Below, piece by piece: positions 28,752 through 62,743 of a stretch of 64,000 nt of DNA; positions within the stretch are counted from its first letter, which is position 1, and the number at the start of each line of letters is the position of its first letter. The DNA is from Candidatus Sulfopaludibacter sp. SbA3. Its GTDB lineage: Bacteria > Acidobacteriota > Terriglobia > 20CM-2-55-15. The stretch spans positions 30,308 through 94,307 of the forward strand of contig CAMBFR010000002.1 of the NCBI GenBank assembly GCA_945865815.1. The letters are read 5' to 3'. The notes under the pieces were generated by a model, which was not told the origin of the DNA, made no database searches, and saw only the letters and a list, made by a program, of their open reading frames with translations. The position numbers were made by a program, and so were the translations under genes.

Positions 28752-28753
28752 AG

Positions 28754-30489: not shown

Positions 30490-30491
30490 CG

Positions 30492-41575: not shown

Positions 41576-41576
41576 T

Positions 41577-49196: not shown

Positions 49197-50449
49197 GATT
49201 TACCGACCGCCTCCGCTTCCCACGACGCTGGCGTATAGGAAGTGCCTTCATATGCGCGCCACAATTTACAAGGAACATTACGACCCTGAAGGTATCGGTA
49301 AATTTCCTCCTGGAACGCGTAGGGCACAACAATGATGTCGGAATACATGCTGTAGTCAGTGCCCTCAGAACCAGACACTGTTGCGTTGACGCCAGCCACC
49401 TCACGCGACCATTTGGCCGAATCCGAGTCGATCACTCCAAATCGATTGCGCCGCTCTTCAGGCAAAAGCGCATTGATGTTGCACAGACCAAGACATGCAC
49501 CATACATGGCAACTCCGGCCTGGCTTTTCCGTATGATGTCCTTAATGCGCCGCTGGCGCACATGGCCCTTCGATATGAATGCCTGAAGCGTTCCTGAAGG
49601 GCCGGGTTCGGATTGAGAGCCCATGCGGGCCGGGAATTCGCGCCTTGCATGAATGATAATCTCCATTCGATTGTGAATGATGCGTTGAACACGCAGGCCG
49701 GCGCCCTCACAGATCAAAGTAAGATTCGCGGGGGTGAAATAATTGAGGTGTTCGTGCGCAAACATCCCCAGGTCTCCATCCATCAGGCCTGCTTCTCCAT
49801 TCGGCATCTCAGCTATGAAGTCCCCGCCGGGCATCAACAACTCTGCCGCAGCGGCAACCACGCTGTGTACATTGCTGAGGTGCTCGAGCACGCCAAAGGA
49901 ATAAATCAGGTCGAAGTGCTCTGAAAACTCACGGGCTTTGCTCACTCCGAAATAATCTCGTACAACCGTTGCGCCGTTAGGAGTCTCGTCAATTGCAGAT
50001 GATGGCTCGAAACCCACTGCCACCTTCGCACCCCTAATCTTCCATTCGTCGATAAGAAATCCGCTGCCGCAACCAATTTCAAGCACACACGCCGGATCCA
50101 GACCTTTCAATACCTCTCGGAGTTGCATGACGACCTGCGCGCCCCAACCTTTACTTCCCGCAGCAGCGGAAGGGTTGTTGATGCCGGCCGTCGAGTAGAT
50201 GAATTGCAGGACTTCAGCGATCTCGCTGGAAGGCGGTTGCTGCACCAATCGACACTTCTCGCACTCCACCAACCGTGATGGAAAGTTGCGCCCGCGAAGC
50301 ACCTTCTCGGCTACTTCGGATTTGATGCCGTACCAGAATGAGAGAGGGCCAAGGTCGGCGACATGCGAAGAAACCTGCGTCGCGCCGCATCCGTTGCACG
50401 TAAAAGCAACTGGCTCGTTGACAATCCGCATTTCCGCGCCGCCTACCAC
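49193..50449 (-). CDS. zinc-ribbon + class I SAM-dependent methyltransferase (sugar C-/N-methyltransferase-like, Methyltransf_13/14 architecture)
   Basis: N-terminal CNGCG...CEKC zinc-binding pairs. VLEIGCGSGFL motif I. C-terminal domain as in TylC3/TcaB9-type sugar methyltransferases. Confidence 0.6.
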   Translation of the reverse strand: MVGGAEMRIVNEPVAFTCNGCGATQVSSHVADLGPLSFWYGIKSEVAEKVLRGRNFPSRLVECEKCRLVQQPPSSEIAEVLQFIYSTAGINNPSAAAGSKGWGAQVVMQLREVLKGLDPACVLEIGCGSGFLIDEWKIRGAKVAVGFEPSSAIDETPNGATVVRDYFGVSKAREFSEHFDLIYSFGVLEHLSNVHSVVAAAAELLMPGGDFIAEMPNGEAGLMDGDLGMFAHEHLNYFTPANLTLICEGAGLRVQRIIHNRMEIIIHARREFPARMGSQSEPGPSGTLQAFISKGHVRQRRIKDIIRKSQAGVAMYGACLGLCNINALLPEERRNRFGVIDSDSAKWSREVAGVNATVSGSEGTDYSMYSDIIVVPYAFQEEIYRYLQGRNVPCKLWRAYEGTSYTPASWEAEAVGKS

Positions 50450-51273
50450 GCGGTCCAGCCGCCATCCACGACGAGGTTGTGTCCCGTAACATACAATGAA
50501 AGATCACTCGCTAAATACGCCACTGCGCCTTTCAAATCCTCTTCCGTTGCCATGCGAGCCATTGGCGTCCTTGCGGCATACCGATCGTGGAATGATTCCG
50601 GTTGCCGGCGCCATACTCCACCGGGCGTGATGGCATTTACACGAACGCCGGGAGCAAGCGTCGTGGCCAGATACCTGGTAAGTTGAAGTAAGCCTGCTTT
50701 CGAAGCGCCGTAGGCCGCAGGATTTCCCATGCTCGTTCCTTCGTACAGTCTGAGATCTGGCCCAGCGACTCCATAAATCGACGAGAACAAAATAATGGAG
50801 CCGTGGCCGGAATCCAACAGCGGTTGTCTCGCTGCCTGGACCATTACAAACGCGGATGTGAGATTGACCCTTAGTGCTGCGTCCCAGGCTTGTACTGTCT
50901 GGTCCTCAAATGGAACAGCCCACCCTGGAATTTGTGTAGTGCCGACATAAGCTGCGCCGTGGATCAGAATGTCCAATCCCCCAAGGCGCTCAATGGCGTC
51001 CTTAATCGATGCGCGTGTCGCTGTTTCATCGGCCAAATCGCAGACTGCGGAAAAGGCCCGTTGCTGGCCGTAACGCTCGGAGAGCTCCGCCGTCCGCTGT
51101 TCGCATGCCTGGGCGTCAACGTCCAGAATGACAACGGTCGCGCCAAGTTCGAGCAATGTTTCATCGATCGCCAGTCCGATGTGGCCGGCTCCGCCCGTCA
51201 CTATGGCTCTTCGCCCTTTCAGTTGGGCCAGCTCGCTGATAGAGCGCATTGTCACTGCGGATTCTCCAGCCAT
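50443..51273 (-). CDS. SDR family oxidoreductase
   Basis: Probable start at internal MAGESAVTM or MRSIS (51273 or 51249). The listed ORF reaches 51396 but overlaps neuA by 145 nt. AIVTGGAGHIGLAI and YGASKAG. Confidence 0.8.
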   Translation of the reverse strand: MAGESAVTMRSISELAQLKGRRAIVTGGAGHIGLAIDETLLELGATVVILDVDAQACEQRTAELSERYGQQRAFSAVCDLADETATRASIKDAIERLGGLDILIHGAAYVGTTQIPGWAVPFEDQTVQAWDAALRVNLTSAFVMVQAARQPLLDSGHGSIILFSSIYGVAGPDLRLYEGTSMGNPAAYGASKAGLLQLTRYLATTLAPGVRVNAITPGGVWRRQPESFHDRYAARTPMARMATEEDLKGAVAYLASDLSLYVTGHNLVVDGGWTAW

Positions 51274-51995
51274 CGAAAAGCAACTAATCCAGACTGCACC
51301 AAGAGCTCCGAGCGCCTGAATTCGTCCATTGTGTCGATGGACATCGCTCTCGCTTCTGGAATCTCGTGAATAAGGTGTTTTCCGCTCTCCCGCCACGAAT
51401 TCCGGACGGTCCGCACAAACTCCGCCCGCCAGACATAAAGAGAGCCATTAATGCGATAGATTGCGGGAACATCCTGCCGCCGCGCGAACTTGCCTGCGCC
51501 ATCGAAAAGGTCATCCATCCACCCATCCGTCTCAATCACACAGTTCCATAGAGGATTGAAATCCGGCTTGGACACACTTACAACGCCATTCGCAGCAGGA
51601 TTGCGCTTCAACCGATCGAGCGCCTGAGCAACATCACTCGGTTCCCGTCCCGGAGAAGTCGGATCCAATAGCACAACGAACTGAAATGAAACTTCCTGGC
51701 TATTCTCGATTGCCGACAGCGCGTGTTGCACCACCGGCATCATTGGCGTATCGTCTTGCGCTAATGAGGCCGGACGCAGGAACGGGATATCCGCATCGAA
51801 CTGCCGTGCCACTGCGGCAATCTCGGCAGAATCCGTCGAAACGACGATGCGATCGATCTCCGGACACATTCTTGCAAAGAGAATCGAGTGGGCAATCAAG
51901 GGCAGGCCCGCGAAAGACCTGATATTCTTGCCTGGTAGTCCCTTAGAGCCACCCCGCGCCGGAATTACTGCCAACACTTCGGAACGGGATTTCAT
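51252..51995 (-). CDS. neuA: acylneuraminate cytidylyltransferase (CMP-nonulosonic acid synthetase)
   Basis: Probable start MKSRSEVLAVIPARGGSKGLPGKNI at 51995, forming an ATGA overlap with the upstream stop. This is the canonical NeuA N-terminus. Confidence 0.85.
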   Translation of the reverse strand: MKSRSEVLAVIPARGGSKGLPGKNIRSFAGLPLIAHSILFARMCPEIDRIVVSTDSAEIAAVARQFDADIPFLRPASLAQDDTPMMPVVQHALSAIENSQEVSFQFVVLLDPTSPGREPSDVAQALDRLKRNPAANGVVSVSKPDFNPLWNCVIETDGWMDDLFDGAGKFARRQDVPAIYRINGSLYVWRAEFVRTVRNSWRESGKHLIHEIPEARAMSIDTMDEFRRSELLVQSGLVAFRWLENPQ

Positions 51996-52987
51996 TGTTC
52001 GACCTTTTCTTCTCTTCGATGCGATGACGCAAGGCGTGCTGCATCGCACACGGCAAGAGCCGTCACGCCCTCGCGCCCCGTCGTCAGACGCTCATCGTTG
52101 ACTCCCGCGACTGCATTAAGGAAGGCTGCGTCCTGAGACGACAACATCTCAGTTCGAGTCTGAGCGGAACGAATGATCTCCTGCGGTGCATCGGCCAGCT
52201 TGAGCGTAACGGTTTGTTCTATTCCGTTCCACTCCAACGTGCCGCGCTCGCCAAGGGCACGGACCAAGCGCCGAGGGGCCCTCGTCAGATAGTCGAGACC
52301 GACAGAAACAATACAGTGCTGAGCCGTCTCCCAACTCAGTTCAGCCACTTCATCCGAATGTATGCCCAGTCTTCCAAGGTTGTGAACTCGGGCCAACACG
52401 GTGGTGGGCCATCCGAAAAGCCAACCTGCATAATCGATCTCGTGAATGAGATCGCGCAGTACACCGCCTTCACCGGCGCATGCGGAATAAGATTCCCGGA
52501 AAGGACGCGCAGGCCGCCAGTCCGGCAGATACGATTGACACTCGATTCGAACGGAGTGGAGTTCCCCAACCGCGGCTATAAGTGTCCGGAACGTGTTGAG
52601 TGATTCGGAAAATCGAAGGACGCAACCGACAAACAGCTTTCTACGGCGCTCCCGGGCGCAAGCATCGATCGCTGCTGCTTCACTCGAATCAATGGCCAGA
52701 GGTTTCTCTACGAGGACGTCAAGGTCATGCGCCATCGCAAGGAGAGAATCTTGCTTGTGGCGCCCTGTGTTTGTGGCGATGATGCAAGCCGTGACTCCCG
52801 AATCCACTGCCTCCTGAAGGTTCGGCGCAACATCAAATCCTGCAGATCGAAGTTCGGCGACCCGGTCCTGTCGCGCGGGTATCGCAAAGGTCTTGACGGA
52901 ATCCATGGCACGCAAGGCTTCCAGGTGCCGCATTCCGGCGCTGCCTGTACCAAGAACCGCGATACATTTTGCAGGCACACTGCTCAC
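51992..52987 (-). CDS. Gfo/Idh/MocA family oxidoreductase
   Basis: Probable GTG start at 52987 (GTGA overlap with upstream SDR stop). The sequence then reads VSSVPAKCIAVLGTGSAGMRHLEAL...VLVEKP. The listed ATG at 53185 would overlap the SDR by 202 nt. Confidence 0.65.
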   Translation of the reverse strand: MSSVPAKCIAVLGTGSAGMRHLEALRAMDSVKTFAIPARQDRVAELRSAGFDVAPNLQEAVDSGVTACIIATNTGRHKQDSLLAMAHDLDVLVEKPLAIDSSEAAAIDACARERRRKLFVGCVLRFSESLNTFRTLIAAVGELHSVRIECQSYLPDWRPARPFRESYSACAGEGGVLRDLIHEIDYAGWLFGWPTTVLARVHNLGRLGIHSDEVAELSWETAQHCIVSVGLDYLTRAPRRLVRALGERGTLEWNGIEQTVTLKLADAPQEIIRSAQTRTEMLSSQDAAFLNAVAGVNDERLTTGREGVTALAVCDAARLASSHRREEKVEQ

Positions 52988-53688
52988 AGAACTCCGCCAT
53001 TGATATCTATCACGGTGCCGTTGATGTATGAGGCCTGTTCGCTGGCGAGGAACCCAATTGTTTCGGCTACTTCTCCTGGCTCTGCAAGGCGGCCCAGAGG
53101 ATTGCCTGCGGCCAGTTGCTTCAGGTCGGCCCCAGCCACAGCAGCCGTAAGCATTTCGGAAAGTGTCTGAGATGGCGCGACACAATTGATATTTATGCCG
53201 TCCCTCCCGAATTCCGCGGCGAGTTGCCGGGTGAGGCCAACAACACCGTATTTCGAACAGGTGTATGCCACCGAAGCGGTGCGGCTATAACTACGGGCTG
53301 CGACAGAAGCGGTGTTGATAATTCGGCCGTACCTTTGAGCGCGCATGTAGGGAATGGCATGTTTGCAGCAGAAATATGTCCCAATCAGATTCGTCCTGAG
53401 TACGGACTCCCAATCTCCCAGGCCAAGACTTAAGGCATCGCCAGGCGTCGCAATCCCGGCACAGTTCACCAGAATGTCAATACGGCCATGTGTGGTGGCA
53501 ACTTCGGCGAATACACGCGATATGGAGTCTTCGTCGCGTACATCGCACCGGCGCGTTTCGTTCGATTCCTCAACGTGCCGGGAGATACCGATTGAAAGAA
53601 TGTTCCTGCTCGCCAGGAGCTTTGCAGTGGCGTTTCCGATGCCACGCGACGCGCCGGTGATGATTGCGACCCGGCGGTCACTCGACAT
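52984..53688 (-). CDS. SDR family oxidoreductase
   Basis: VAIITGASRGIGNATAKLLA, NCAG and YTCSKYG. Confidence 0.85.
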   Translation of the reverse strand: MSSDRRVAIITGASRGIGNATAKLLASRNILSIGISRHVEESNETRRCDVRDEDSISRVFAEVATTHGRIDILVNCAGIATPGDALSLGLGDWESVLRTNLIGTYFCCKHAIPYMRAQRYGRIINTASVAARSYSRTASVAYTCSKYGVVGLTRQLAAEFGRDGININCVAPSQTLSEMLTAAVAGADLKQLAAGNPLGRLAEPGEVAETIGFLASEQASYINGTVIDINGGVL

Positions 53689-54850
53689 AGACGTGCTCCA
53701 TGTCTCTCGCGCCGCACGCCAGGCGGATACCCGGCTCTTTGCTGACGCAGACTATGCTGTGGATCGTCCCACGCGGCAGAAAAACAACATCGGAAGGGCC
53801 GGCCCGGACCACTTCGCCTTCTGCCAACCTCCACTCGAAGGTTCCCTCAAGAACAATCCACCATTCGTCATGGGTTACGTGGCAGTGCTTTCTGGCGCCT
53901 TCGCCGGGCTCCTGGCAAATCAGGGCCGTCTGGTCAGTCCCTGTGTAAACAAGCAGGTAGAGCCACGGAGCCTTCCCCATCTTCCGTTTGATTTCGTCGA
54001 GATTTCGAAACCGCAGGTTGGCTTCCGACCCTTCAAACCGGACGACTCCATCGCGACTGATCAGATCCTTAAGATCGTTTTCAATTCCCACGACGCTGTC
54101 ATCGAACCGGTGTTTTCCAACGGCTCCGGTTTGCCGCCGGTGCTGCAGGGAAGCTTCGATGAGATAGAGGTCATCCCAGGTATCAGCGTCCAGCGCCTGT
54201 ATCCGATCCATCGGAAACACGCCGGTCTTGCCGCAGAATGTGGGACCATTCTCGGCAGGATCGTCGCGCAGATAAGACTGCATAAACGAGGATGTCTTCC
54301 ACCCGCTCAATGCCCACGTGATCATTTGAAGTGGCTGAAGAGTCTGCGTGGGCGTCTTCCTGGAGTAGGAGAAGTTCAGAGGCTTTCCATCAATTAAAGT
54401 CTCGGTGAAGCGTTCCTCGACGGAAAACAGAGAATCATATTCGTCCTTTTCAAGCGTCTGCATGAATTCTCTGATCGTCGACTCGCGAATCAGGGGGGAC
54501 GTCGTGTGCACCAACGCAAGATGGCAAGGTTCAAGAGTCTGCATGAAATCGAACAAAAAATGGTCGTGGGTCTGGCATCGGGCACTTTCACACTGTCGTG
54601 ACTTGCTTTTCATCACGCAGGCCGAACCCCCACGCTCCGGGCTTCGGCGGTAGAACTTCACGCCGAGCATACCTGCCATCTTTTCAAAGATGTCGTGTTC
54701 AGAGTTGATATAGATTTCATCGAATATTCCGGATTGTTTGCAGGCGCGGCCAACGTAAAAGGCCATCGGCCAACCGTCTACCAGAAGCAGATTTTTATCG
54801 GGAATTCTTGTGCTTCCCAAAAGAACCGGGATCATCGCGATCTTTTTCAT
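53678..54850 (-). CDS. fusion: NeuA/KdsB-like cytidylyltransferase (N-term) + cupin domain (C-term)
   Basis: Probable start MKKIAMIPVLLGSTRIPDKNLL at 54850 (ATGA overlap). C-terminal HCHVTHDEWWIVLEGTFEWRLAEGEVVRAGPSDVVFLPRGTIHSI is a two-His cupin motif. Confidence 0.65.
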   Translation of the reverse strand: MKKIAMIPVLLGSTRIPDKNLLLVDGWPMAFYVGRACKQSGIFDEIYINSEHDIFEKMAGMLGVKFYRRSPERGGSACVMKSKSRQCESARCQTHDHFLFDFMQTLEPCHLALVHTTSPLIRESTIREFMQTLEKDEYDSLFSVEERFTETLIDGKPLNFSYSRKTPTQTLQPLQMITWALSGWKTSSFMQSYLRDDPAENGPTFCGKTGVFPMDRIQALDADTWDDLYLIEASLQHRRQTGAVGKHRFDDSVVGIENDLKDLISRDGVVRFEGSEANLRFRNLDEIKRKMGKAPWLYLLVYTGTDQTALICQEPGEGARKHCHVTHDEWWIVLEGTFEWRLAEGEVVRAGPSDVVFLPRGTIHSIVCVSKEPGIRLACGARDMEHVYVE

Positions 54851-55956
54851 TGGGAAATATCCTGTTCCGGTCTCAGATAGCGCTGCTCGTAATCGAAGCA
54901 AAGCCTATCGAGGACTTCCATTGCCTGGGGCGTAGCTAACTCGGCTACAAACTGCCTCCGCCGTTCGAACTCCCTCGCTTCGTCAGATTCTTTCTGTGGG
55001 GGTTCCCAGCCATATTCTTTGTAGATCGGCAACGCGATTCCCTCTGCGTACATTTTGCGGGGAACGTTTTGTTGCTTGAGCGCCTTCCGTGTTGTCGACG
55101 TAACATCCGTGCCCAGAAGCTGCGCCATCTCTTTCATGTATGGCCACGGGTCTGTCACAAAACGTTCGAAGGGAATAATCAGTAACTGCGAGCGCTGGGA
55201 TTGAGGCAGACCATCAATGACGGCTTGTTGCGCGCGATGCATCTCTTCGTTCATATAGATGGCCTGATCCATGGGATTTGCGGTCAGATACTTGCTTTCC
55301 CAGCCCGAAACCCACCACGGCAACGAACGGTCCTGATATTCGAACCAGACAGAGAAGTCGCGAGGATCATTTGCCCAGCGATGCATGAATTTCAACTGCT
55401 GCTTCAACATGTAAAGCGGGTGACGCACAACTTCGATGAACTTCAGCCTCGTACCAAGCGCCTCAAACAGACAGGGACTGATTCCGAGCAACATGTGAGT
55501 CACCAGGTGAAGAATAGGCCGCTCCCGCTGGATTCGCTCAATAGCCGCCGCGTCGCCCGGCTGGAAGAGTCGCCGAAGATACTTCCAGCGATTCGGATTG
55601 AAGCGAACACTCGAGATGTCGCTCCACCGAAAATTCGTCTCACGTGACATCGTTACGTTGTAAAGCTGCAGATCTGTGAAGATTCGTATGAGGCTGGTTG
55701 CCGCATCGGCATCGATCTTGTCGAGGAACTTCAGGCAACAGGTGTATTCAAGCTGGTACGAGTACTGAACCAGTTCAACGCGCGCCATACCACTGACAAT
55801 CGGCGCCAGCATCGTCTTGCCGCATCCAGGCATGCCATCAACGAGGACTACTGTCTCCGCCAAATGAACCGGCCGGCTGACCCTTTGTGTCTGTCCCCTC
55901 AGAATTGTCACGCTACGATGAGGAGCCCCGATCTGAGCTGTCGACGCTGTAGCCAA
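54847..55956 (-). CDS. P-loop containing protein (possible sulfotransferase or small-molecule kinase)
   Basis: VLVDGMPGCGKTMLAPIV Walker A-like motif. The rest is unassigned. Size and context are compatible with a sugar sulfotransferase or kinase. Confidence 0.3.
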   Translation of the reverse strand: MATASTAQIGAPHRSVTILRGQTQRVSRPVHLAETVVLVDGMPGCGKTMLAPIVSGMARVELVQYSYQLEYTCCLKFLDKIDADAATSLIRIFTDLQLYNVTMSRETNFRWSDISSVRFNPNRWKYLRRLFQPGDAAAIERIQRERPILHLVTHMLLGISPCLFEALGTRLKFIEVVRHPLYMLKQQLKFMHRWANDPRDFSVWFEYQDRSLPWWVSGWESKYLTANPMDQAIYMNEEMHRAQQAVIDGLPQSQRSQLLIIPFERFVTDPWPYMKEMAQLLGTDVTSTTRKALKQQNVPRKMYAEGIALPIYKEYGWEPPQKESDEAREFERRRQFVAELATPQAMEVLDRLCFDYEQRYLRPEQDISQ

Positions 55957-56977
55957 ACAGTTGTTCCCCGTACCGCGTCAGATCAAGAGTCGTCTGCAGT
56001 GAGATGAGTGGCATGATGGCTCGTATCTTCGAGTCGAGCATTGCCGCAACCTGTTCCACGAAACCTGTTTTGACATCCGCAGCCAGGGTTGTCAATGGGA
56101 CTTCTTCCCAGTCGCTCATCGGATCCGTTCGCTGGAAGAGTTTTTCGAGCGGGCATAGCCGGTAGGACGAAACCCTGGTATGAATCTCGACGAACCACCT
56201 TCCCGCCGATCCCCAATCCGCATGGTAACTATAAGGAATTTGGAGACTGGAGATTCCGGCGCCCACAAACCTGCTCCCGCTTGGGTGCCAACTGACAGCT
56301 GCTCCGGTCCTGTAGCCGTTCCACTGGCCTGGCAATCCGATCAGCCCATGTGCCAGGCTCATCACGTGCAGGCTGTTGGCTATGCCCCATCTCCTCATTT
56401 CATCCGGTGAATAGCGATTGGGATCAAGCTTCTTAACGAACTCCGTGAAGGAATACGTGCACGATGTGATACCGCCTTGTTCCTCTGCTCTGGCGCGTGC
56501 TTCATGGAACGACGGATAGGCGACTCGGTTATAACCGCATGCAGTGTCGACCTGACAGCTGCCAGCCTCGACTGCTAACTCCTCGATCTCTGAGGACCAG
56601 AGGGAAACCGGCTTTTCGATGAGGATCTTTCGATAGCCCAGAGCCATGAGATGTCTTGCGGCCGGAACCAGGCTTTTAATCGGCAACGCAATAATCGCCA
56701 GTTCACCGTTTACCGGCTTGATCCGCAGTTGTTCAAAATCACCCGGCAATCGCGTGATACCGTGCTGTTCATCCAATTCCGTCAATTCGGCGCTTGGTCT
56801 GGAACATACCCGTACGTGGCCAACGCGCAATGTTCGAAGCGCTTTTACGAACTGGCGTCCCATGCCGCCATATCCGATCACCGTAGCGGTGTGTGTGGAG
56901 AAATCGGCCTGGGATATCGCTGCAGCGAGCTGCGATGAATTGGCGCTGATGTTTGAACTCCCGGGAAGGCTGGTCAT
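55913..56977 (-). CDS. Gfo/Idh/MocA-like oxidoreductase
   Basis: TATVIGYGGMGRQFVKAL Rossmann start and ILIEKP. Confidence 0.55.
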   Translation of the reverse strand: MTSLPGSSNISANSSQLAAAISQADFSTHTATVIGYGGMGRQFVKALRTLRVGHVRVCSRPSAELTELDEQHGITRLPGDFEQLRIKPVNGELAIIALPIKSLVPAARHLMALGYRKILIEKPVSLWSSEIEELAVEAGSCQVDTACGYNRVAYPSFHEARARAEEQGGITSCTYSFTEFVKKLDPNRYSPDEMRRWGIANSLHVMSLAHGLIGLPGQWNGYRTGAAVSWHPSGSRFVGAGISSLQIPYSYHADWGSAGRWFVEIHTRVSSYRLCPLEKLFQRTDPMSDWEEVPLTTLAADVKTGFVEQVAAMLDSKIRAIMPLISLQTTLDLTRYGEQLFGYSVDSSDRGSSS

Positions 56978-57951
56978 GTAACAGGAGAGTGACTGACTGG
57001 AGTGCCGAGGAGACGTTCAAAGTGTGGCTGGAGTTCTGTGAGTATGAAATCGTGTGCGGCAAAGCACTGCTTCAAACTCGGCAGCTGACAACACCCGTGA
57101 GCCAGAATATCCGTGACAAAACCTCTGCTCATATTGCTGATCGTCAGGTCAGCCTCAAATGGCACAGGCCGCCAGGCCCATCCGGTTTCTTCGCTGCTCT
57201 CGTACAGCCATTTCATCATGTCGTCAACCACAGCTCGATAGCGGGACGACACGACTGAAAAAAGAACCGGTGAAGAGTGTTTCGCGTCAAAAGAGAGGAA
57301 CAAGGTGCTGTCCCTCTTTGAACGGCCACAGAGAGTTCCACTTAAATCGCAGGCGCCGCGCTTAGTCTGGTGCAGGATTGGGTCTATTCGACTGGCAAGG
57401 CCCTCAATACTGTCCGCATCATCGTAAAAGGCAAACAAATCGGCAACGTGGATGCCATTCGTTACCAGCCCGTGATTACCGCCGGTTGCCGTAAACACGA
57501 ACGGTTCTCCACCGCGCAAGTTCGCTTTCACCCGAGAGTGGGAAGGATGAGCCCGTGTCTTACAGTTGACCCAGACCAGGAGCTGCTTCGCGTCAGAGAA
57601 ACGGATCAGTTCCTGATAGTCCAGAACGGATTGAGAGACGACCTTCTCTAACAGAAAGCTCTTATAGTCCAAACGGTCTGCCACGTCACGCACCACGCGG
57701 CAGCGAACGTCAGCCTGAGTCGCAACAATGCAGAGGTCTCCGCCGGGACTGACTTCATCCAAGGACGATAGCCATCTGAATGTCGTGACCCGCGAGTCCG
57801 GCACTTCAGAAACCCGCTTCCGGCCCAACTCCAATGCTTCCGGCCGGCGGTCCACTATTTCGATCTCTCGTACCTCCGGTAAGGAAGCAACGGCTTGCAG
57901 ATGACGGCTCCCGATCTCGCCACAACCGATCAACAGAATGCGTTTGCTCAT
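56974..57951 (-). CDS. Gfo/Idh/MocA family oxidoreductase
   Basis: MSKRILLIGCGEIGSRHLQAVASL and LLEKVV. Confidence 0.7.
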   Translation of the reverse strand: MSKRILLIGCGEIGSRHLQAVASLPEVREIEIVDRRPEALELGRKRVSEVPDSRVTTFRWLSSLDEVSPGGDLCIVATQADVRCRVVRDVADRLDYKSFLLEKVVSQSVLDYQELIRFSDAKQLLVWVNCKTRAHPSHSRVKANLRGGEPFVFTATGGNHGLVTNGIHVADLFAFYDDADSIEGLASRIDPILHQTKRGACDLSGTLCGRSKRDSTLFLSFDAKHSSPVLFSVVSSRYRAVVDDMMKWLYESSEETGWAWRPVPFEADLTISNMSRGFVTDILAHGCCQLPSLKQCFAAHDFILTELQPHFERLLGTPVSHSPVT

Positions 57952-58535
57952 CGATTACTGGAGTATTCGGCCGATCCAATAATCTGATCGCACACGGCAA
58001 GCAGCCAAATATGATGTGTCATTTCGACGATGTTATAGGCCCGGCTGTCGACCCAGAAATTCAGATGGCCGTGTCTCTTCAGGGGATTGTCTTCAGCGAA
58101 GCCCGTAAACGTTACTAATTTCAATCCCGCATTCACGGAGTAGCTGGCCGCGTTGACCATATTCGGCGACCTTCCGCTGGAGCTGATGAGAATGACAGCA
58201 TCTTCACTGTCGGCATAGAACTCCAGTGCCTTCTCCACCCAGTGCTCGTAACCGTAGTCGTTGGCAAAACAAGTAATAAGATCGGCCTCGTTGAAATTAA
58301 CAGCCCGAATGCGCGCCTGCTTGGTCAAATCGACAGCGCAGTGACTGGCGATTGCGGAGCTTCCGCCATTACCGGCAAGGATGACCTTCCCCCCTTTCTT
58401 CGAAATAGAACAAAGAAGGTCCTTCAGCTCAACGAGCAGCGAAATCACGCCAGGTTGAAAAAGGCTAGCCTGGTATCGCTCGAGGTACTGTGTCAGCCAC
58501 TGTTCCTCCGGCCGGTCCGGTTTACCGGTTTTCAT
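57948..58535 (-). CDS. SIS-domain sedoheptulose-7-phosphate isomerase (GmhA-like), second copy
   Basis: GGKVILAGNGGSSAIASHCAVDL and AVILISSSGRSPN. Confidence 0.8.
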   Translation of the reverse strand: MKTGKPDRPEEQWLTQYLERYQASLFQPGVISLLVELKDLLCSISKKGGKVILAGNGGSSAIASHCAVDLTKQARIRAVNFNEADLITCFANDYGYEHWVEKALEFYADSEDAVILISSSGRSPNMVNAASYSVNAGLKLVTFTGFAEDNPLKRHGHLNFWVDSRAYNIVEMTHHIWLLAVCDQIIGSAEYSSNR

Positions 58536-59562
58536 AAATCTTGTCGATGAGCCGCATCAGTTTCAGAGCATCCTGCGATGTTCCGCACTCGATCGGTGTG
58601 TCGTTCTCGATTGCCCGGAAGAAATGTTCGATCTCGTAGCGCCACGAATTGTCCACCTCAAACACCAGATCTTCCTGCTCGGTCCACGTGGCCGCAGGCG
58701 CGGCAGAACGGTTCTTGGTAACTGTCATCGATTCGGCGCCGTAGCTGCCGGAAGGAGTGAGAAGACCGTTAATGATAATGCAGCCCTTGTCCAGGAAGAT
58801 CTCAAGCGAGAACAGGTGCCGCCACTGGGTCATCGTGGAATGGAGAGAAGCGACAACGCCATCTTTGTTCCTGAAGGTGGCGAATACGTTGTCCTCGACA
58901 TCGAGTTTCCAGTAAAGGTTAGAAACAAATGAGTGCACTTCGTCGAAGTCACCGGCCATCATCACAAAAAGGTCCAGCATGTGAATGCCCTGGTCAATCA
59001 TGATGCCGCCGCCGGCATATTCCTTCTTCGCGCGCCAACTGCCGTAGAAGCTCTCCTCGACGCTCTTGCCGTAACGTCCACGCATCCACAGGATCCGCCC
59101 GTAGGCGCCGGAATCGATGAACTCCTTGGCCTTGATGATGCTCTCGTGATGCCTGTGGTTGAATCCATACATCAACTTCTTGCCGTTCCGCATCTCCACC
59201 GCGATGACTTCTTCGATTTCTTTCGCTGTGAACGCGGGCGGCTTTTCACAGAAAACGTGCTTTCCCGCTTTCAAGGCCTCAATTGTCAGTTTCTGGTTCA
59301 AATAATTGGGCGTGCAGATGAATACAGCCTGAACCTCGGGATCGGCTATAAGGTCCGCTGCCGTCCGGTGAACGCGAACGTTCGTCAGTTGCGCGAGCCG
59401 CTCGGAATCTGGGTCTGTTGCCGCCACCACACGCGCATTCCCGTTCTCGGCGATCGTGGAATAACGGATGCGGCCCATTTTCCCCATGCCGACAATGCCA
59501 ACCGAGATCACGTTTCTTGTCTGCTTTGGTGGATTCTCCAGGTCTGGAGCGTTTCTAGTCAT
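58522..59562 (-). CDS. Gfo/Idh/MocA family oxidoreductase
   Basis: ISVGIVGMGKMGRIRYSTIAE and VFCEKPPAF. The C-terminal half is similar in pattern to 32766..33818. Confidence 0.8.
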   Translation of the reverse strand: MTRNAPDLENPPKQTRNVISVGIVGMGKMGRIRYSTIAENGNARVVAATDPDSERLAQLTNVRVHRTAADLIADPEVQAVFICTPNYLNQKLTIEALKAGKHVFCEKPPAFTAKEIEEVIAVEMRNGKKLMYGFNHRHHESIIKAKEFIDSGAYGRILWMRGRYGKSVEESFYGSWRAKKEYAGGGIMIDQGIHMLDLFVMMAGDFDEVHSFVSNLYWKLDVEDNVFATFRNKDGVVASLHSTMTQWRHLFSLEIFLDKGCIIINGLLTPSGSYGAESMTVTKNRSAAPAATWTEQEDLVFEVDNSWRYEIEHFFRAIENDTPIECGTSQDALKLMRLIDKIYENR

Positions 59563-60637
59563 AAATCAGACCATTTCCGATAGTCCGCAAGTATTGCCTG
59601 CAGACCCCCTGAAATCGTTCGTCATTCGGATACCTTCCTCTAAACACGTGGCCGGGCTCCTTCATGAGGATGAGCGCAAGGTCGCCACCGACATTCTTCT
59701 TGTCACGCGCGAGAGCTTCAAAAAATGGGTTCTCCGGAATGTGAGTGCGTTGGAAACCCGAAAAATTCCGCGACAACAGAATGTGTAGTTCCTCGAATAT
59801 AGATCGGGTGGTGAGGCCCAGGCGGCAGGACACGTAATTGGCGATATCCGCACCCATTGTGACGCCTATTCCATGGGGTATAGCGTAGTTCGTCGCACTC
59901 TCAAGGGCGTGGCCAAAGCTGTGGCCATAGTTCATGACCAGTCGTTCTGCCCGGTCAAACTCGTCGATCTCGATCTTCGCTTTCTTCAGCTCCAGGGATC
60001 GCCGGATGTATTTCTCCATGGTAGATCGGTTTTCGAGTATCCGTTCGTAGTCCGCCGCGATGGCGCGCGTGTCTTCCCATCCGGAAATGATATGAACCTT
60101 CAGCATTTCGCCGACGCCGGACTTCAGATCCACCGCATCAAGAGTGTCCAGTAATTCGGTGGAAATTCGCACCTCATCCGGGGGAGTGAACGTCCCCAGT
60201 TGATTCTTATAGCCGCCTACGTTGATCGACGTTTTGGATCCGATACAGCTATCCGCTTGTGCAAGCAATGTGGTTGGATAGAACCGCCAGCGTAGCCCTC
60301 GCAGCAATGTTGCAGCAATGAATGCCGTGATGTCCTGAATAATGCCGCCACCGATGGCAACAAGCACATGATCGCGGCGGATCCCGTGATTGACCAGGTG
60401 GATAACGTATTCGGGAATCTTTTCAAGCGATTTGTTTTCCTCGGCCGCCTGTATGCGGAGGGTTGAAGGACGCGATAGAGCTGACTGCAACGGTTCGGCA
60501 TAGAGTTCGGCAACGCGGGAGTCGATGATGAGATGTTCGTTCTCTTTCAGGCCTGCTTCCAGTCCATCGAACGCGTGTCCAAACGCAACCGTGTATGGTC
60601 CACGATGCGACTGGATTATCAACTGTGTGTCAGACAC
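59555..60637 (-). CDS. 3-dehydroquinate synthase-like sugar-phosphate cyclase
   Basis: LVAIGGGIIQDITAFIAAT (GGGxxxD NAD loop), GSKTSIN, and YGHSFGHALESATNYAIPHGIGV (metal-binding His pair), all hallmarks of DHQS/2-epi-5-epi-valiolone synthase enzymes. Confidence 0.75.
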   Translation of the reverse strand: MSDTQLIIQSHRGPYTVAFGHAFDGLEAGLKENEHLIIDSRVAELYAEPLQSALSRPSTLRIQAAEENKSLEKIPEYVIHLVNHGIRRDHVLVAIGGGIIQDITAFIAATLLRGLRWRFYPTTLLAQADSCIGSKTSINVGGYKNQLGTFTPPDEVRISTELLDTLDAVDLKSGVGEMLKVHIISGWEDTRAIAADYERILENRSTMEKYIRRSLELKKAKIEIDEFDRAERLVMNYGHSFGHALESATNYAIPHGIGVTMGADIANYVSCRLGLTTRSIFEELHILLSRNFSGFQRTHIPENPFFEALARDKKNVGGDLALILMKEPGHVFRGRYPNDERFQGVCRQYLRTIGNGLIYD

Positions 60638-61337
60638 ACGTAAATCCGCCGTCGACGATTACATTTTGGCCGGTCATATACGTATTATCTTCACTGGCCA
60701 AAAAGCCGATGTAGCGTGCGATCTCTTCGGGCTGTCCCAACCTCTGCATAGGGACTCGCGCCTGCATTTCCTGCATACCTGCGGGTCCGAGATTGGCTCG
60801 GGTAAGATCCGTATCAATGAAGCCTGGCGAGAGACAGTTCACAAGGATGTTGTCCGCGGCAACTTCGATAGCCAGTGAGCGGCTTAGACCGACGAGGCCA
60901 AACTTGCTCGCCGAATACGCGGAGCGGCCCTCCTTGCTGACCACGCTGAAAATAGATGCGATGTTGACGATCCGTCCGAATCGACGCGATTGCATTCCTG
61001 GAACAACGGCTCTGCAAAGCATGAACGGCGCTGTCACATTGACCTGGTGAATCAGGGCGAAATCTTTCGGATCGCACTGGGAAAGGGGACCGATTTTGTT
61101 AATACCGGCATTGTTGACGAGTACCGAGAGCCGCAGGTCGCCGATCGTGGAAGCAAGCCTCTCCAGAGCAGCCAAATCGGCAAAGTCGCAGGAGAGATAG
61201 TGGCATCCGGGCGGCGGCTCGCACTGCGAAGAGCGGCCGGTTACGAAGACTTCATGTCCAGACCTGACAAGAACCAGGGCGGTGGCGAGGCCAATACCGC
61301 GAGTTCCGCCAGTAACCAGGGCGCGTTTTTCAGGCAC
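60630..61337 (-). CDS. SDR family oxidoreductase
   Basis: ALVTGGTRGIGLATALVL, NNAG and YSASKFG. Confidence 0.85.
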   Translation of the reverse strand: MPEKRALVTGGTRGIGLATALVLVRSGHEVFVTGRSSQCEPPPGCHYLSCDFADLAALERLASTIGDLRLSVLVNNAGINKIGPLSQCDPKDFALIHQVNVTAPFMLCRAVVPGMQSRRFGRIVNIASIFSVVSKEGRSAYSASKFGLVGLSRSLAIEVAADNILVNCLSPGFIDTDLTRANLGPAGMQEMQARVPMQRLGQPEEIARYIGFLASEDNTYMTGQNVIVDGGFTCV

Positions 61338-61357: not shown

Positions 61358-62743
61358 CTAACCAAGAGCAGGGAGCCCGCCTTGGTTGAAGACCAACTCA
61401 CACAGGATTTGAGGTACGCTTTTCCTGTCAGGTGGAACGAACTTGCGGCGAACAAATATGTCCGGGTCATAGCTGCAGTCGTTTTCGATCCATCCAATGT
61501 GGTCCGACACTCCAAATGAGAAACGGGGATTGGAAACGTTCGGGTGAGACACCGCAATAAGGCCGATCACGTTTACGAAATTGCAGGCTTCGCGGGCAAC
61601 AAATAATCCGTTTGAGAAGGGACCGACAACTGCGACATAGTCGCACGCTACTTCCCTGATCGGTTGATCGTTCTCCGCAACAGTCGCGACAATGCCTTGC
61701 ATCCTTAAATAGGTGCACAACTTTGCAGCCGGGTCCCCCTCTGACCTGGGGTGGGGCCGCAAGTGAACCGCACTGCCTCCGGTCTTCTTAAGCACAGTTT
61801 GAATATCACGATAATAAAGAGGGAAAAACTCTTCCGGCACGTAGCCTTCTACGAGAACCAGGATGATCGAGCTGCCAGACTCCATTGTCCGGCAACGGCA
61901 GTTATCCCGTGTTGGATAACTCGCCACATAAACACGTGATTTCTCGAAGAGTGGGGCGTGCGCCCTTGCCATGACTTCATCAAAAAAAATCGTGGCGTGG
62001 CTTCTGCCCGATCCGATTTGAGTCAACTGATCGTATGCGTGATAAGGGAAACTCCTGCCTGCAAATACGGTGGGCAGTAGAATACGATCGATAAAATAAG
62101 TGTCTTTCTCTAAGAGGTTCCTAACGCGAACACGCACTTGTTCTATCAGTTTGCCAATCAAAAATCTGAGGGATCCAGTCTGCTTTACGCCGGCAACTAA
62201 ATTGCGAATTGCTCGTTTCTGCTTTTCTGATTCGGCTTGTTTGCCGAGTGCCACAGCGCTGGCAGGACTCCTGCCGCTTAACAATTCTTTCGACAGCACC
62301 TCTTTCAACAATAAGTGGGTTCTACCCACGCTGAGGCAAACGCGAACGCAATCACTGGGAAGCACACATTCTGTCAAATACCGATGAAATGAGACCAACT
62401 CGTCACTCGCCAGCAAGGCGTCGAAATTGAAACTGCGCCAAAGTCGGATATTGCGTCGAATGAACCAATGGTGATTAAACAGATCCGCACGACGCCCGGA
62501 GGGAGCGTAATCCGGCAGAAGCCAGCACTTCTCAATGGACCCCGTTCTAACCAGACAGTCCAATAGTTCATGCAAGCGCCCGGTAATCCGATAATCCCAG
62601 AGAATGATATAGACGGTAAAGTGCTCAACTAGTTCAGGAATCAAAGGGACGATGGCCTCATGGAACATATAGGGACTCGTCCACGAAATCAGCAGCCTCT
62701 TTTTCACAGAGCTCACTGACCCGTCGGGGATCGACGGCCACAC
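61358..62743 (-). CDS. hypothetical protein; candidate GT-B CMP-sugar glycosyltransferase (HP motif)
   Basis: 461 aa with no classical motifs except VHLRPHPRSE and a later AVSHPN, plus a GPFSNGLFVAREA segment. Resembles the HP-motif transferases at 33790 and 36261. Confidence 0.3.
   Translation of the reverse strand: MWPSIPDGSVSSVKKRLLISWTSPYMFHEAIVPLIPELVEHFTVYIILWDYRITGRLHELLDCLVRTGSIEKCWLLPDYAPSGRRADLFNHHWFIRRNIRLWRSFNFDALLASDELVSFHRYLTECVLPSDCVRVCLSVGRTHLLLKEVLSKELLSGRSPASAVALGKQAESEKQKRAIRNLVAGVKQTGSLRFLIGKLIEQVRVRVRNLLEKDTYFIDRILLPTVFAGRSFPYHAYDQLTQIGSGRSHATIFFDEVMARAHAPLFEKSRVYVASYPTRDNCRCRTMESGSSIILVLVEGYVPEEFFPLYYRDIQTVLKKTGGSAVHLRPHPRSEGDPAAKLCTYLRMQGIVATVAENDQPIREVACDYVAVVGPFSNGLFVAREACNFVNVIGLIAVSHPNVSNPRFSFGVSDHIGWIENDCSYDPDIFVRRKFVPPDRKSVPQILCELVFNQGGLPALG

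Follow-up and report, generated by a model that had tools for sequence, protein, structure and literature searches.

A 3-dehydroquinate synthase-like protein in an acidobacterial glycan locus belongs to a widespread AroB sister family and may help to make a CMP-activated acidic sugar

Results

An AroB-like gene in a translationally coupled glycan operon

The DHQS-like protein encoded in the window (the whole 64,000-nucleotide stretch analysed, from Candidatus Sulfopaludibacter sp. SbA3) belongs, judged by its sequence, to TIGR04425, a widespread and hitherto uncharacterised sister family of 3-dehydroquinate synthase (AroB, DHQS). We give a probability of about 0.5 to the reading that it carries out the chemistry of DHQS on a 3-deoxy-ulosonate phosphate resembling DAHP and so feeds a CMP-activated acidic sugar. 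Its gene is one member of a translationally coupled operon of SDR, AroB-like, GFO and SIS genes, accessory genes and a cytidylyltransferase-cupin fusion. Six overlapping minus-strand genes lie at 55913-61337 (the SDR, the DHQS-like enzyme, one clear GFO enzyme, a GmhA-like SIS and two very divergent GFO-like proteins); genes of the operon overlap by 4-14 bp at their junctions, the SDR and AroB-like genes by 8 bp, and independent calls on two other metagenome assemblies gave identical gene boundaries. The preliminary description had placed the DHQS-like gene in a glycan locus, and its open reading frames were confirmed on the minus strand, as were the other locus genes that it named: a second SIS (31178-31807), a TAL/FSA (30492-31181), an HpcH (29695-30489) and the CTP_transf_3-cupin fusion (53678-54901). 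The features are as follows.

60630-61337, minus strand: FabG-like SDR, near-obligate upstream partner of the AroB-like gene (Pfam adh_short_C2, 2e-51)
59555-60637, minus strand: predicted AroB-like NAD+/metal-dependent sugar-phosphate phospholyase, TIGR04425, 360 aa
58522-59562, minus strand: predicted canonical Gfo/Idh/MocA sugar or cyclitol dehydrogenase (Pfam N and C domains, both ~1e-25)
57948-58535, minus strand: putative GmhA-like SIS_2 phosphosugar isomerase (SIS_2, 3.5e-11)
56974-57951, minus strand: protein E, very divergent GFO-like Rossmann protein, accessory and rare (GFO_IDH_MocA N domain, 24.2 bits, cutoff 24)
55913-56977, minus strand: protein F, very divergent GFO-like Rossmann protein, accessory and rare (GFO N domain, 25.6 bits, cutoff 24)
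54847-55956, minus strand: protein G, conserved (cluster c30), with a Walker-A-like GMPGCGKT motif
53678-54901, minus strand: CMP-type cytidylyltransferase (PseF/NeuA-like) fused to a C-terminal cupin (CTP_transf_3, 2e-11; Cupin_2, 7e-11)
27975-33818, minus strand: second module with a KdsB-subfamily cytidylyltransferase, a further ORF, HpcH, TAL/FSA, SIS, a methyltransferase and GFO (Pfam)

Of the three GFO oxidoreductases counted in the preliminary description, only 58522-59562 is a clear one; in the PDB it comes closest to DgpA C-glycoside 3-oxidase, levoglucosan dehydrogenase, 1,5-anhydrofructose reductase and inositol dehydrogenases. The other two are highly divergent and barely pass the Pfam threshold: protein E matches 3c1a best (5e-5) and has a homologue in only one surveyed locus (L001), and protein F keeps the EKP motif, matches dimeric dihydrodiol dehydrogenase best (2e-3) and has homologues in L001 and L068 only. 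The isomerase, first described as GmhA-type, has the SIS_2 domain and GmhA (1tk9, 4e-16) as its nearest PDB entry, but it scored 65 bits against the gmhA model (cutoff 209) and is classed here as GmhA-like, not as a verified GmhA. Protein G gave no Pfam, NCBIfam or PDB sequence match; it has homologues in 5 loci (best 51% identity) and an AF2 model with a pLDDT of 34. In the fusion protein, the N-terminus resembles CMP-NeuAc synthetase 1qwj (4e-9) and the cupin resembles KdgF 5fq0 (3e-4), and we regard it as the putative activating enzyme of the AroB-like module.

The surrounding glycan locus spans ~48 kb and also holds a complete legionaminic-acid pathway, which the module of the DHQS-like gene abuts. 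In the second module, the cytidylyltransferase (27975-28751) scored 197 bits against NF003952 (cutoff 193), and the HpcH, of the pyruvate aldolase type, resembles HpaI/GarL aldolases. Three loci elsewhere (L009, L017 and L037) have the contiguous layout HpcH-CTP-(MT)-GFO-SIS-SDR-AroB-like, and the second module is possibly linked to the SDR/AroB-like operon within the window. The operon is best explained as a branch within a large glycan locus for ulosonic and nonulosonic acids.

Family, active site and phylogeny of the AroB-like protein

The protein contains the motifs GGGIIQD and NYGHSFGHALE and matches Pfam DHQ_synthase (5e-32) and DHQS_C (3e-26). It passed the TIGR04425 model, "AroB-related putative sugar phosphate phospholyase", with 453.7 bits (cutoff 400) and failed the aroB model TIGR01357 with 238.8 bits (cutoff 305). 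Identity to AroBs is 25-31%, and in neighbour-joining trees, the only kind computed, the family formed its own clade (bootstrap 99/100) with 9 and again with 17 AroB references. These results indicate that the protein is not the housekeeping AroB, in agreement with the preliminary description. That description had named two marks of a bona fide AroB; the DAHP-binding residues are indeed all conserved, but the protein does not nest within bona fide AroB. Many databases label its relatives '3-dehydroquinate synthase', and a literature search on the TIGR04425 family found no paper.

The window protein shares with AroB the two-domain fold, the GGGxxxD NAD site, the three metal ligands and all 13 active-site residues, including the sites changed in EEVS, DDGS and DOIS; the same 13-residue pattern was found in 17/17 AroB references. 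Among 74 relatives, 12 of the 13 positions are invariant; the remaining one, 197, has K in 50 relatives and H in 24. The DHQS fingerprint K250, R264, N268, H275 and K356 is present in the window protein and in all 74 relatives, which have none of the changes of EEVS (K250M, N268D, H275P), DDGS (K250M, R264D, N268A, H275P) or EVS (K356R). Since all 13 residues are identical to those of AroB, the protein is, as far as can be read from the sequence, not an EEVS/DDGS-type sedoheptulose-7-phosphate cyclase. However, EVS, which uses sedoheptulose-7-phosphate, departs from DHQS at only 1 of the 13 sites (K356R), and thus the DHQS fingerprint is no proof of a carboxylate substrate. Of 60 family-invariant positions, 45 agree with the consensus of AroB and just 6 are specific to the family, among them C131, two residues past the catalytic Asp. 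The AF2 model (pLDDT 88) had AroB structures as all of its 19 best PDB fold matches (TM 0.75-0.84), and the nearest solved structures are likewise all AroB.

Gene context across related loci

The context survey covered 80 related loci spread over more than 15 phyla, archaea among them, with 49 loci in group A (to which the window belongs) and 26 in group B. An SDR homologue lies directly upstream of the AroB-like gene in 66/77 loci (same strand, ending at -60 to +150 bp of its start) and anywhere in the locus in 76/80. GFO homologues were found in 40-43 loci, SIS homologues in 29-35, a 2-hydroxyacid dehydrogenase in 34, a Maf-like gene in 17, NeuB in 12, and DegT and class I/II aminotransferases in 20 and 8, respectively. 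An aldolase (HpcH, HpcH-like, HMGL or NeuB) occurs in 41 of the 80 loci; only 18/49 group A loci have one within 9 kb. One locus has two AroB-like copies. No AroK-like, aroE or DAHP-synthase neighbour of the AroB-like gene was found in the 80 loci, in contrast to bona fide aroB, which adjoins aroK, shikimate dehydrogenase or DAHP synthase in 7/8 loci fetched; the preliminary description's view that the neighbours are glycan genes and not aro genes was thereby borne out.

Group A adds GFO, SIS, 2-hydroxyacid dehydrogenase, a CMP-type cytidylyltransferase, a pyruvate aldolase and a Maf-like transferase to the pair, and group B adds a ThDP enzyme, an FGGY kinase and an aldolase, and also combines the AroB-like enzyme with NTP_transferase, aminotransferase and GT2 genes. 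CTP_transf_3 is present in 37/49 group A loci and in 0/26 group B loci, which suggests that the product is not always CMP-activated. In many group A loci, the AroB-like gene is followed immediately by a homologue of the cytidylyltransferase-cupin protein. Of the partner cytidylyltransferase clusters, one passes KdsB-subfamily cutoffs and the other is PseF-like; the partner DUF386 is N-acetylneuraminate-anomerase-like (NanQ-like), and both HpcH and HMGL are similar to pyruvate aldolases. No Maf, 2-hydroxyacid dehydrogenase, DUF386 or Cyclase partner was found in the window. Taken together, the recurrent partners (KdsB/PseF-like, DUF386 or cupin, pyruvate aldolases, Maf-like) speak for a DAHP-like substrate and ulosonic-acid chemistry in preference to a validamycin-type NDP-cyclitol, and the earlier suggestion of a tie to nucleotide activation held in the form of a CMP-type enzyme.

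Discussion

The preliminary description raised the possibility of an EEVS-like cyclase converting sedoheptulose-7-phosphate into a C7 cyclitol, which would be modified by GFO and SDR enzymes, nucleotide-activated and placed in a glycan by validamycin/acarbose-type logic. EEVS (ValA/AcbC), DDGS and EVS are of the same superfamily and presumably oxidise, eliminate phosphate and reduce in the same way. Their role lies outside the shikimate pathway, and kinases, reductases and nucleotidyltransferases go on to modify what they make. The adjacent isomerase with phosphoheptose isomerases as nearest structures, the TAL/FSA gene of the locus, the inositol dehydrogenases among the named relatives of the GFO enzyme and the 12/13 fingerprint residues that EVS, a true cyclase of this substrate, has in common with DHQS and the AroB-like family fit this explanation, and group B, with its FGGY kinase, NTP_transferase, aminotransferase and GT2, recalls pathways of kinase, nucleotidyltransferase and pseudoglycosyltransferase. 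Nevertheless it is unlikely: the fingerprint differs at 3-4 sites from that of EEVS and DDGS and at K356 from that of EVS, the EEVS+DDGS clade (100/100) is remote and EVS grouped with the family in 0/100 bootstraps. The isomerase fails the GmhA model, and a GmhA would draw sedoheptulose-7-phosphate off from the cyclase. In addition, the nucleotidyltransferase of group A, as of the window module, is of the CMP/ulosonic-acid and not the GlgC/VldB type and comes together with pyruvate aldolases and a domain of the anomerase-like or cupin kind. A DOIS-like cyclase would convert a hexose-6-phosphate into a deoxy-inosose and, with SDR, GFO and aminotransferases, yield a deoxy- or aminocyclitol substituent of the glycan; it would leave CMP-type activation and pyruvate aldolases unexplained. 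DOIS was a frequent sister of the family in bootstrap trees (14/100), the GFO enzyme resembles inositol dehydrogenases and aminotransferases recur, but DOIS has G, E and N in place of R264, N268 and K356, all three of which the AroB-like family keeps in 74/74, and we consider such activity very improbable.

That the gene is a shikimate-pathway DHQS, or a redundant copy, lying by chance in a glycan locus is extremely unlikely, despite the unchanged catalytic and DAHP-binding residues, the AroB folds and the database names: the score lies beneath the curated aroB cutoff and above that of TIGR04425, the clade is separate, and the SDR partner and glycan surroundings recur across phyla without aro neighbours, once with two AroB-like copies. 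A somewhat different role, in which the SDR/AroB-like pair supplies a side chain that is not itself a sugar (such as an acyl or ether group derived from quinate or shikimate) and that decorates the neighbouring legionaminic acid, would fit the abutting pathway, the frequent decoration of nonulosonic acids and the group B loci without any CMP-transferase. It is also unlikely, since many group A cassettes have their own CMP-transferase and Maf-like gene with no NeuB within 9 kb, and the search of the recurrent neighbours turned up no conserved acyl-activating ligase.

Two known systems resemble the preferred reading, that of a DAHP-like ulosonate phosphate as substrate. AminoDHQ synthase (RifG/Asm47) is a DHQS paralogue with a near-unchanged active site that acts on a DAHP analogue. 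The RifG precursor is made by RifL (GFO), RifK (DegT), RifM (HAD phosphatase), RifN (kinase), an isomerase and a C-C transferase, and AroB-like cassettes hold GFO, DegT, HAD, FGGY kinase, SIS, TAL and aldolase genes. However, aminoDHQ synthase has K197R and its own clade (100/100), and the AroB-like cassettes are without AHBA synthase or dehydratase logic and lie in a glycan, not a polyketide, context. The CMP-Kdo and CMP-legionaminic, -pseudaminic and -neuraminic acid pathways share with them CTP_transf_3 (KdsB-subfamily, PseF-like), an anomerase domain like that of NanQ, an aldolase or synthase that takes a C3 donor, transferases of the Maf-like type (MptE/DUF115) and, as in KpsF/KdsD, a SIS isomerase, but AroB-like loci often have pyruvate-dependent HpcH/HMGL and not PEP-dependent NeuB/KdsA. 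We know of no characterised CMP-ulosonic acid pathway with an AroB-like phospholyase.

Against the preferred reading stand the small share of group A loci with an aldolase within 9 kb to supply the substrate, the partners missing from the window and the lack of a CMP-transferase in group B. Under this reading, the enzyme would bind a DAHP-like 3-deoxy-2-ulosonate omega-phosphate, which may be DAHP or one of its stereoisomers or derivatives, supplied by an associated HpcH, HMGL or NeuB-type aldolase, with the tetrose phosphate coming via SIS, TAL or kinase. The ring C5-OH would be oxidised by tightly bound NAD+ at the Zn/Co site, phosphate would be lost by E1cB and the hydride returned, and the resulting ketone would be reduced by the adjacent SDR. 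Two outcomes may be considered. In (a), the usual DHQS-type cyclisation would give a dehydroquinate-like carbocycle and, after the SDR, a quinate-like carbasugar acid. In (b), the product of interception ahead of the aldol step would be a 3,7-dideoxy-heptulosonic acid, and the AroB-like/SDR pair would be a phosphate-eliminating analogue of an NDP-hexose 4,6-dehydratase and 4-ketoreductase (RmlB/RmlD). The analogy would be functional only: both would use transient NAD+ oxidation and beta-elimination at a terminal carbon, with the keto product reduced by a dedicated adjacent reductase, but the fold differs, phosphate would leave in place of water, and a free sugar acid phosphate would take the place of the NDP-sugar as substrate.

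Outcomes (a) and (b) appear to match the data about equally: (b) would better suit the CMP-transferase, anomerase-like and Maf partners, and (a) the unchanged active site. Against (a), CMP esterified to a tertiary carbocyclic alcohol would make a poor glycosyl donor; against (b), we know of no precedent within the sugar phosphate cyclase superfamily. Knowles and co-workers reportedly argued that DHQS need catalyse the redox steps alone, and an unchanged active site is thus compatible with another fate of the enol-pyranose intermediate. A carbocyclic product, as first suggested, is possible. In either case, the product would be tailored by the GFO and other enzymes, CMP-activated by the cytidylyltransferase and added to a surface glycoconjugate, and the AroB-like enzyme probably helps to make a bacterial sugar hitherto undescribed.

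An AroB-related gene in a packed operon

The DHQS-like protein is encoded in a module of six genes, and all of the ORFs listed in the preliminary description were found there on the minus strand:

60630-61337, minus strand: SDR, upstream of the DHQS-like gene
59555-60637, minus strand: DHQS-like protein of 360 aa; Pfam DHQ_synthase (5e-32) and DHQS_C (3e-26); motifs GGGIIQD and NYGHSFGHALE
58522-59562, minus strand: complete Gfo/Idh/MocA (GFO) oxidoreductase, with N-terminal Rossmann and C-terminal GFO domains (each about 1e-25)
57948-58535, minus strand: SIS_2 protein, downstream of the DHQS-like gene
56974-57951, minus strand: divergent GFO-like ORF; N domain at 24.2 bits (threshold 24); best solved relative of the GFO family (5e-5)
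55913-56977, minus strand: divergent GFO-like ORF; N domain at 25.6 bits (threshold 24); best solved relative of the GFO family (2e-3)

The DHQS hallmarks claimed for 59555-60637 are present, with both Pfam DHQS domains in addition to the two motifs. Three GFO oxidoreductases had been counted; 58522-59562 carries both domains, whereas the other two ORFs give only the N domain, at 24-26 bits against a threshold of 24. The label "GmhA-type" for the SIS_2 protein agrees with its nearest PDB structures, which are GmhA (4e-16), but its score against the gmhA equivalog TIGR00441 was 65.4 bits, compared to a cutoff of 209. Adjacent genes overlap by 4-14 bp, which suggests that the six genes form a single translationally coupled unit, and scanning the window at 52-64 kb for promoters and terminators gave nothing exceeding chance within the block. 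The same genes, with identical called boundaries, occur in two independent metagenome assemblies.

The DHQS-like protein (hereafter, the window protein) scored 453.7 bits (E = 3.9e-136) against TIGR04425, with residues 8-352 covering positions 1-347 of the 348 in the profile. This is above the 400-bit cutoff of this NCBIfam hypothetical equivalog, named [quoted passage not shown]. In contrast, its score against the aroB equivalog TIGR01357 was 238.8 bits, below the cutoff of 305. The nearest solved structures by sequence were all AroB (about 1e-37), followed by DOIS (6e-25), ValA/EEVS (9e-23) and DDGS (2e-15). AlphaFold modelling with 12 family sequences gave a DHQS fold (pLDDT 88), and the top 19 PDB matches of the model were AroBs with TM scores of 0.75-0.84. 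Sequence identity between the window protein and AroBs is 25-31%, compared to 29-65% among the AroBs themselves; to EEVS and DDGS it is 22% and 19%, respectively. The AroB consensus is matched at 45 of the 60 family-invariant positions, and only six invariant positions (S10, Q101, W117, C131, L215 and I222) are specific to the family.

Phylogeny and active site

The preliminary description had proposed a phylogeny against AroB, EEVS, DDGS and EVS, among others. Neighbour-joining trees (corrected p-distances, 100 bootstrap replicates) were built with the window protein, 73 relatives and 9 AroB references, or 17 once eight chromid and plasmid genes annotated as aroB had been added; a search of a plasmid collection had returned only genuine aroB genes, which were taken as extra references. 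With either set, the window protein and its 73 relatives formed a clade of their own in 99 of 100 replicates. The AroB references were paraphyletic in the tree, and some AroB was the sister of the family in 29 replicates. EEVS and DDGS formed a clade in all 100 replicates, with the family outside it, and the family was never grouped with EVS (0/100).

The catalytic, metal-binding and DAHP-binding sites of DHQS we take to be, in A. nidulans numbering, R130, D146, K152, N162, E194, K197, K250, R264, N268, H271, H275, H287 and K356; all 13 positions were confirmed on the A. nidulans sequence. The window protein and its 73 relatives were aligned with references for every sugar phosphate cyclase class, which were available as source data to Osborn et al. 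(eLife 2015; PMC4426668). The window protein has the AroB residue at 13 of 13 sites. Site 197 is K in 50 of the 74 family members, including the window protein, and H in the other 24; the remaining twelve sites are invariant in all or nearly all members (K356 in 73 of 74). The EEVS references carry K250M, N268D and H275P, where all 74 members have K, N and H, and none of the DDGS changes (K250M, R264D, N268A and H275P) is found in the family. The DOIS references carry R264G, N268E and K356N, where the family retains R, N and K. A check of residues that discriminate DAHP from sedoheptulose-7-phosphate (S7P) had also been suggested earlier; it sets the family apart from EEVS and DDGS, but less so from EVS, whose references deviate from DHQS only by K356R. 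Judged from these alignments and trees, the window protein belongs to a putative deep sister group of AroB in which the catalytic core is essentially unchanged.

Related loci and two neighbour architectures

A genome scan returned at least 598 loci encoding relatives. Gene context was counted in the best 80 of these, using simple longest-ORF gene calling over 9 kb on each side and annotating neighbour clusters through representatives, which stand for whole clusters. The best 80 loci come from Nitrospirota, all proteobacterial classes, Verrucomicrobiota, Bacteroidota, Planctomycetota, Lachnospiraceae and three archaeal lineages, and the Nitrospirota relatives show 67% identity and synteny with the window. 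Carriers of the family include chromosome OY781919.1 and two isolates, Joostella sp. CR20 and Butyrivibrio sp. MB2005. When these best 80 of at least 598 loci were probed with the genes of the window, an SDR homologue was found in 76; in 66 of the 77 loci with enough upstream sequence, the SDR gene shares the strand of the AroB-like gene and ends between -60 and +150 bp from its start.

Unbiased clustering of the neighbours gave two nearly exclusive architectures, group A (50 loci, including the window) and group B (26 loci), with features of both in one locus. The group A order is GFO, SIS, (D-2-hydroxyacid dehydrogenase), SDR, AroB-like, (DUF386 or 2-hydroxyacid dehydrogenase), CTP_transf_3, (PF04199 cyclase/amidohydrolase), (HpcH aldolase) and Maf-like MptE/DUF115, with optional genes in brackets. 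CTP_transf_3 genes occur in 37 of 49 group A loci and Maf-like genes in 17, compared to none in group B for either. One cytidylyltransferase cluster of group A is above KdsB-subfamily cutoffs and the other is PseF-like, the DUF386 partner is N-acetylneuraminate-anomerase-like, and the HpcH partner is similar to HpaI, GarL and 2-keto-3-deoxy-rhamnonate aldolases. The group B order is (NDP-sugar genes), acetolactate-synthase-like ThDP enzyme, SDR, AroB-like, xylulokinase-like FGGY kinase, (HMGL-type pyruvate aldolase, divergent NeuB or HpcH-like), HAD phosphatase and GT2. An IolD-like ring-opening role for the ThDP partner was considered and dropped, since its best matches are acetolactate-synthase-type models. 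When aldolases of any kind within 9 kb are counted, 41 of the 80 loci have one, among them 21 of the 26 group B loci and 18 of 49 group A loci.

Groups A and B do not correspond to two clean clades in the enzyme tree, where no more than 15 of 23 group B members come together in a clade free of other sequences, and for this reason we do not present them as isofunctional subfamilies. The distant group B proteins are taken as putative TIGR04425 members. Among the 80 numbered loci (L001-L080), His replaces K197 at L020, L022-L026, L028, L031-L037, L039, L041-L043, L045, L046, L048, L051, L054 and L060; nearly all of these are group A-type cassettes, many from Bacteroidota and Verrucomicrobiota, and two are in loci without a group. 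The group B-type architecture, without any CMP-transferase, is seen at L038, L044, L049 and L055-L080; such loci often adjoin NDP-sugar 4,6-dehydratase and aminotransferase genes and occur in Lachnospiraceae isolates and archaea. L067 has two AroB-like family genes on opposite strands inside one 21 kb locus.

The family is deep-branching, with the DHQS active site unchanged, and is found in surface-glycan operons of Nitrospirota, Proteobacteria, Verrucomicrobiota, Bacteroidota, Firmicutes and archaea. Its genes usually adjoin machinery for the activation of sialic-acid-like sugars.

Partner genes in the window

From about 15.3 kb to the end of the window, nearly all genes are on the minus strand and have glycan functions. 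Beyond the six genes, the window has the following features:

54847-55956, minus strand: gene G, conserved, found in 5 related loci
53678-54901, minus strand: cytidylyltransferase-cupin fusion (CTP_transf_3); N-terminus like CMP-NeuAc synthetase (4e-9), cupin weakly KdgF-like (3e-4)
38339-53688, minus strand: complete legionaminic-acid-type pathway, directly downstream of the module
41577-42785, 42778-43482 and 43475-44344, minus strand: acetamidino machinery (WbuX, HisH-like and HisF-like, respectively)
27975-33818, minus strand: second acidic-sugar module, with KdsB-subfamily cytidylyltransferase, 330-aa protein, HpcH pyruvate aldolase, TAL/FSA, SIS, methyltransferase and GFO
7605-11200, minus strand: third ulosonic-type set, with short NeuB-family protein, DegT aminotransferase and KdsC-like HAD phosphatase-CTP_transf_3 fusion
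61358-62743, 36261-38375, 33790-35445 and 16169-17647, minus strand: four large ORFs (461-704 aa) with no Pfam hit
2083-3759 (plus), 5550-7535 (minus), 12918-14945 (plus), 17698-19254 (minus) and 11366-12466 (minus): four B12-binding and one SPASM radical SAM enzymes

The second SIS, TAL/FSA, HpcH aldolase and cytidylyltransferase-cupin fusion reported elsewhere in the locus were all recovered. Activation of the product as a CMP or NDP derivative had been anticipated, and the putative activating enzyme, the cytidylyltransferase in the operon (53678-54901), is of the CMP type. The HpcH gene (29695-30489) and both NeuB genes of the window lie outside the module. The 27975-33818 module is 25 kb from the AroB-like module and is without NeuB or KdsA; its HpcH/TAL/SIS/GFO/KdsB-like set is contiguous with the SDR-AroB-like pair in L009, L017 and L037. 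Homologues of the Maf-like, 2-hydroxyacid dehydrogenase, DUF386 and cyclase genes were not found in the window. Since no Maf-like gene is detectable there, the four large ORFs are candidate novel glycosyltransferases or polymerases.

Gene G and the upstream ORF U1 gave no Pfam, NCBIfam or PDB sequence matches, and a single-sequence AF2 model of gene G was unusable (pLDDT 34). The public call of gene G (321 aa) begins past a Walker-A-like GMPGCGKT, and its start looks mis-called because homologues align upstream of it. Gene G probably encodes a P-loop enzyme, and its "VVRHP" motif may point to similarity with sulfotransferases.

In the legionaminic set, LegC (477 bits, cutoff 420), NeuB (464, cutoff 400) and hydrolysing NeuC (435, cutoff 236) exceed their cutoffs and LegB is near its own (454, cutoff 475); a CBS-nucleotidyltransferase and a PseF/LegF-like cytidylyltransferase complete the set. 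PHP, ATP-grasp and methyltransferase genes are also inside 38339-53688. The NeuB-family protein of the 7605-11200 set has 288 aa and is without a SAF domain. In total, the window has four CTP_transf_3 genes and two NeuB genes, which suggests that it makes several ulosonic/nonulosonic acids. The radical SAM enzymes in or beside the glycan locus suggest C- or unusual methylations of sugars, and a B12-radical SAM cluster recurs near the AroB-like cassette in four other loci.

Proposed chemistry and alternatives

The analysis shows that the window protein is a TIGR04425 member with its DHQS machinery intact, that it is paired with the SDR and that its other partners are of the ulosonic-acid type; the chemistry below is proposed. 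As substrate, the enzyme would take a DAHP-like 3-deoxy-2-ulosonate phosphate, drawn from primary metabolism or made from a tetrose phosphate by the associated pyruvate/PEP aldolases. In DHQS-type chemistry, NAD+ would oxidize the position next to the ring carbon carrying CH2-O-phosphate, phosphate would be lost by E1cB and hydride returned, and the SDR would then reduce the ketone so formed. Ordinary cyclisation would give a dehydroquinate-like carbocycle and, on reduction, a quinate-like acid. Alternatively, the ring-opened 6-keto intermediate might be captured before the aldol step, giving a 3,7-dideoxy-heptulosonic acid, and the SDR and AroB-like pair would then be the phosphate-eliminating counterpart of a 4,6-dehydratase and 4-ketoreductase.

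Both outcomes are compatible with the data. The unchanged active site favours the carbocycle. In contrast, the partners favour the dideoxy acid: the CMP-type transferase, the anomerase-like protein and the Maf-like transferases all require a sugar in hemiketal form, and a tertiary carbinol esterified with CMP would donate poorly. Knowles and co-workers reportedly argued that DHQS may catalyse redox steps only, in which case the dideoxy acid would be feasible without any change in the active site. The cassette classes (GFO, DegT, HAD, kinase, isomerase, transaldolase/aldolase and DHQS paralogue) parallel those of the aminoshikimate pathway, whose aminoDHQ synthase is a precedent for a DHQS paralogue with a substrate that resembles DAHP and derives from a modified sugar.

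[quoted passage not shown] More tentatively, with a probability of about 0.3, the SDR and AroB-like pair would mark a class of acidic sugars not yet described from bacteria and archaea. The product, either a carbocyclic ulosonic-acid analogue (quinate-like or carbocycle-fused) or a 3,7-dideoxy-heptulosonic acid, would arise through DHQS chemistry taken over from the shikimate pathway, and would be activated with CMP and exposed on the surface glycans of many phyla, most of them uncultured.

The proposal that the enzyme cyclizes S7P to a C7 cyclitol is weakened by the DHQS-type fingerprint and by the tree, in which the family is outside the EEVS and DDGS clade and apart from EVS. EVS uses S7P with a nearly DHQS-like site, which keeps this proposal alive, and the kinase, NTP-transferase and glycosyltransferase content of group B resembles the logic of cyclitol activation. 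A DOIS-like reaction is disfavoured by the retention of R264, N268 and K356. The likeness to bradyrhizose was dropped, as the paper on its proposed gene cluster, which centres on a dTDP-glucose 4,6-dehydratase, mentions no AroB-like gene (PMC4743980).

A housekeeping AroB would also have all of the DAHP-binding residues, and these are conserved here. However, the family forms a separate clade (in a tree where the AroB references are paraphyletic), the aroB cutoff is missed while that of TIGR04425 is passed, and no AroK-like neighbour was found within 9 kb on each side in the best 80 of at least 598 loci; at genuine aroB loci, aroK, shikimate dehydrogenase (aroE) or DAHP synthase adjoins in 7 of 8. 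The curated cutoffs, tree and genomic context thus make a housekeeping AroB very unlikely. In the window, it is possible that the AroB-like product is a substituent on legionaminic acid, although this would leave the many self-contained cassettes without NeuB unexplained.

Significance

The existence of the family is already known, since NCBI has catalogued it as a hypothetical equivalog. Our literature search found no paper on the TIGR04425 family or on dehydroquinate synthase homologues in nonulosonic/sialic-acid or flagellin-glycosylation pathways, and the pairing with the SDR, both neighbour architectures and the connection with CMP-ulosonic-acid machinery appear to be previously undescribed. 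Several public sources label family members "3-dehydroquinate synthase", which could wrongly credit genomes with a step of the shikimate pathway; finding the product of the family would correct this label. The product would probably turn out to be a new monosaccharide, or else a known one that is reached by a new route. Its identification would widen the known repertoire of nonulosonic/ulosonic acids, with relevance to host mimicry, phage receptors and flagellin glycosylation.
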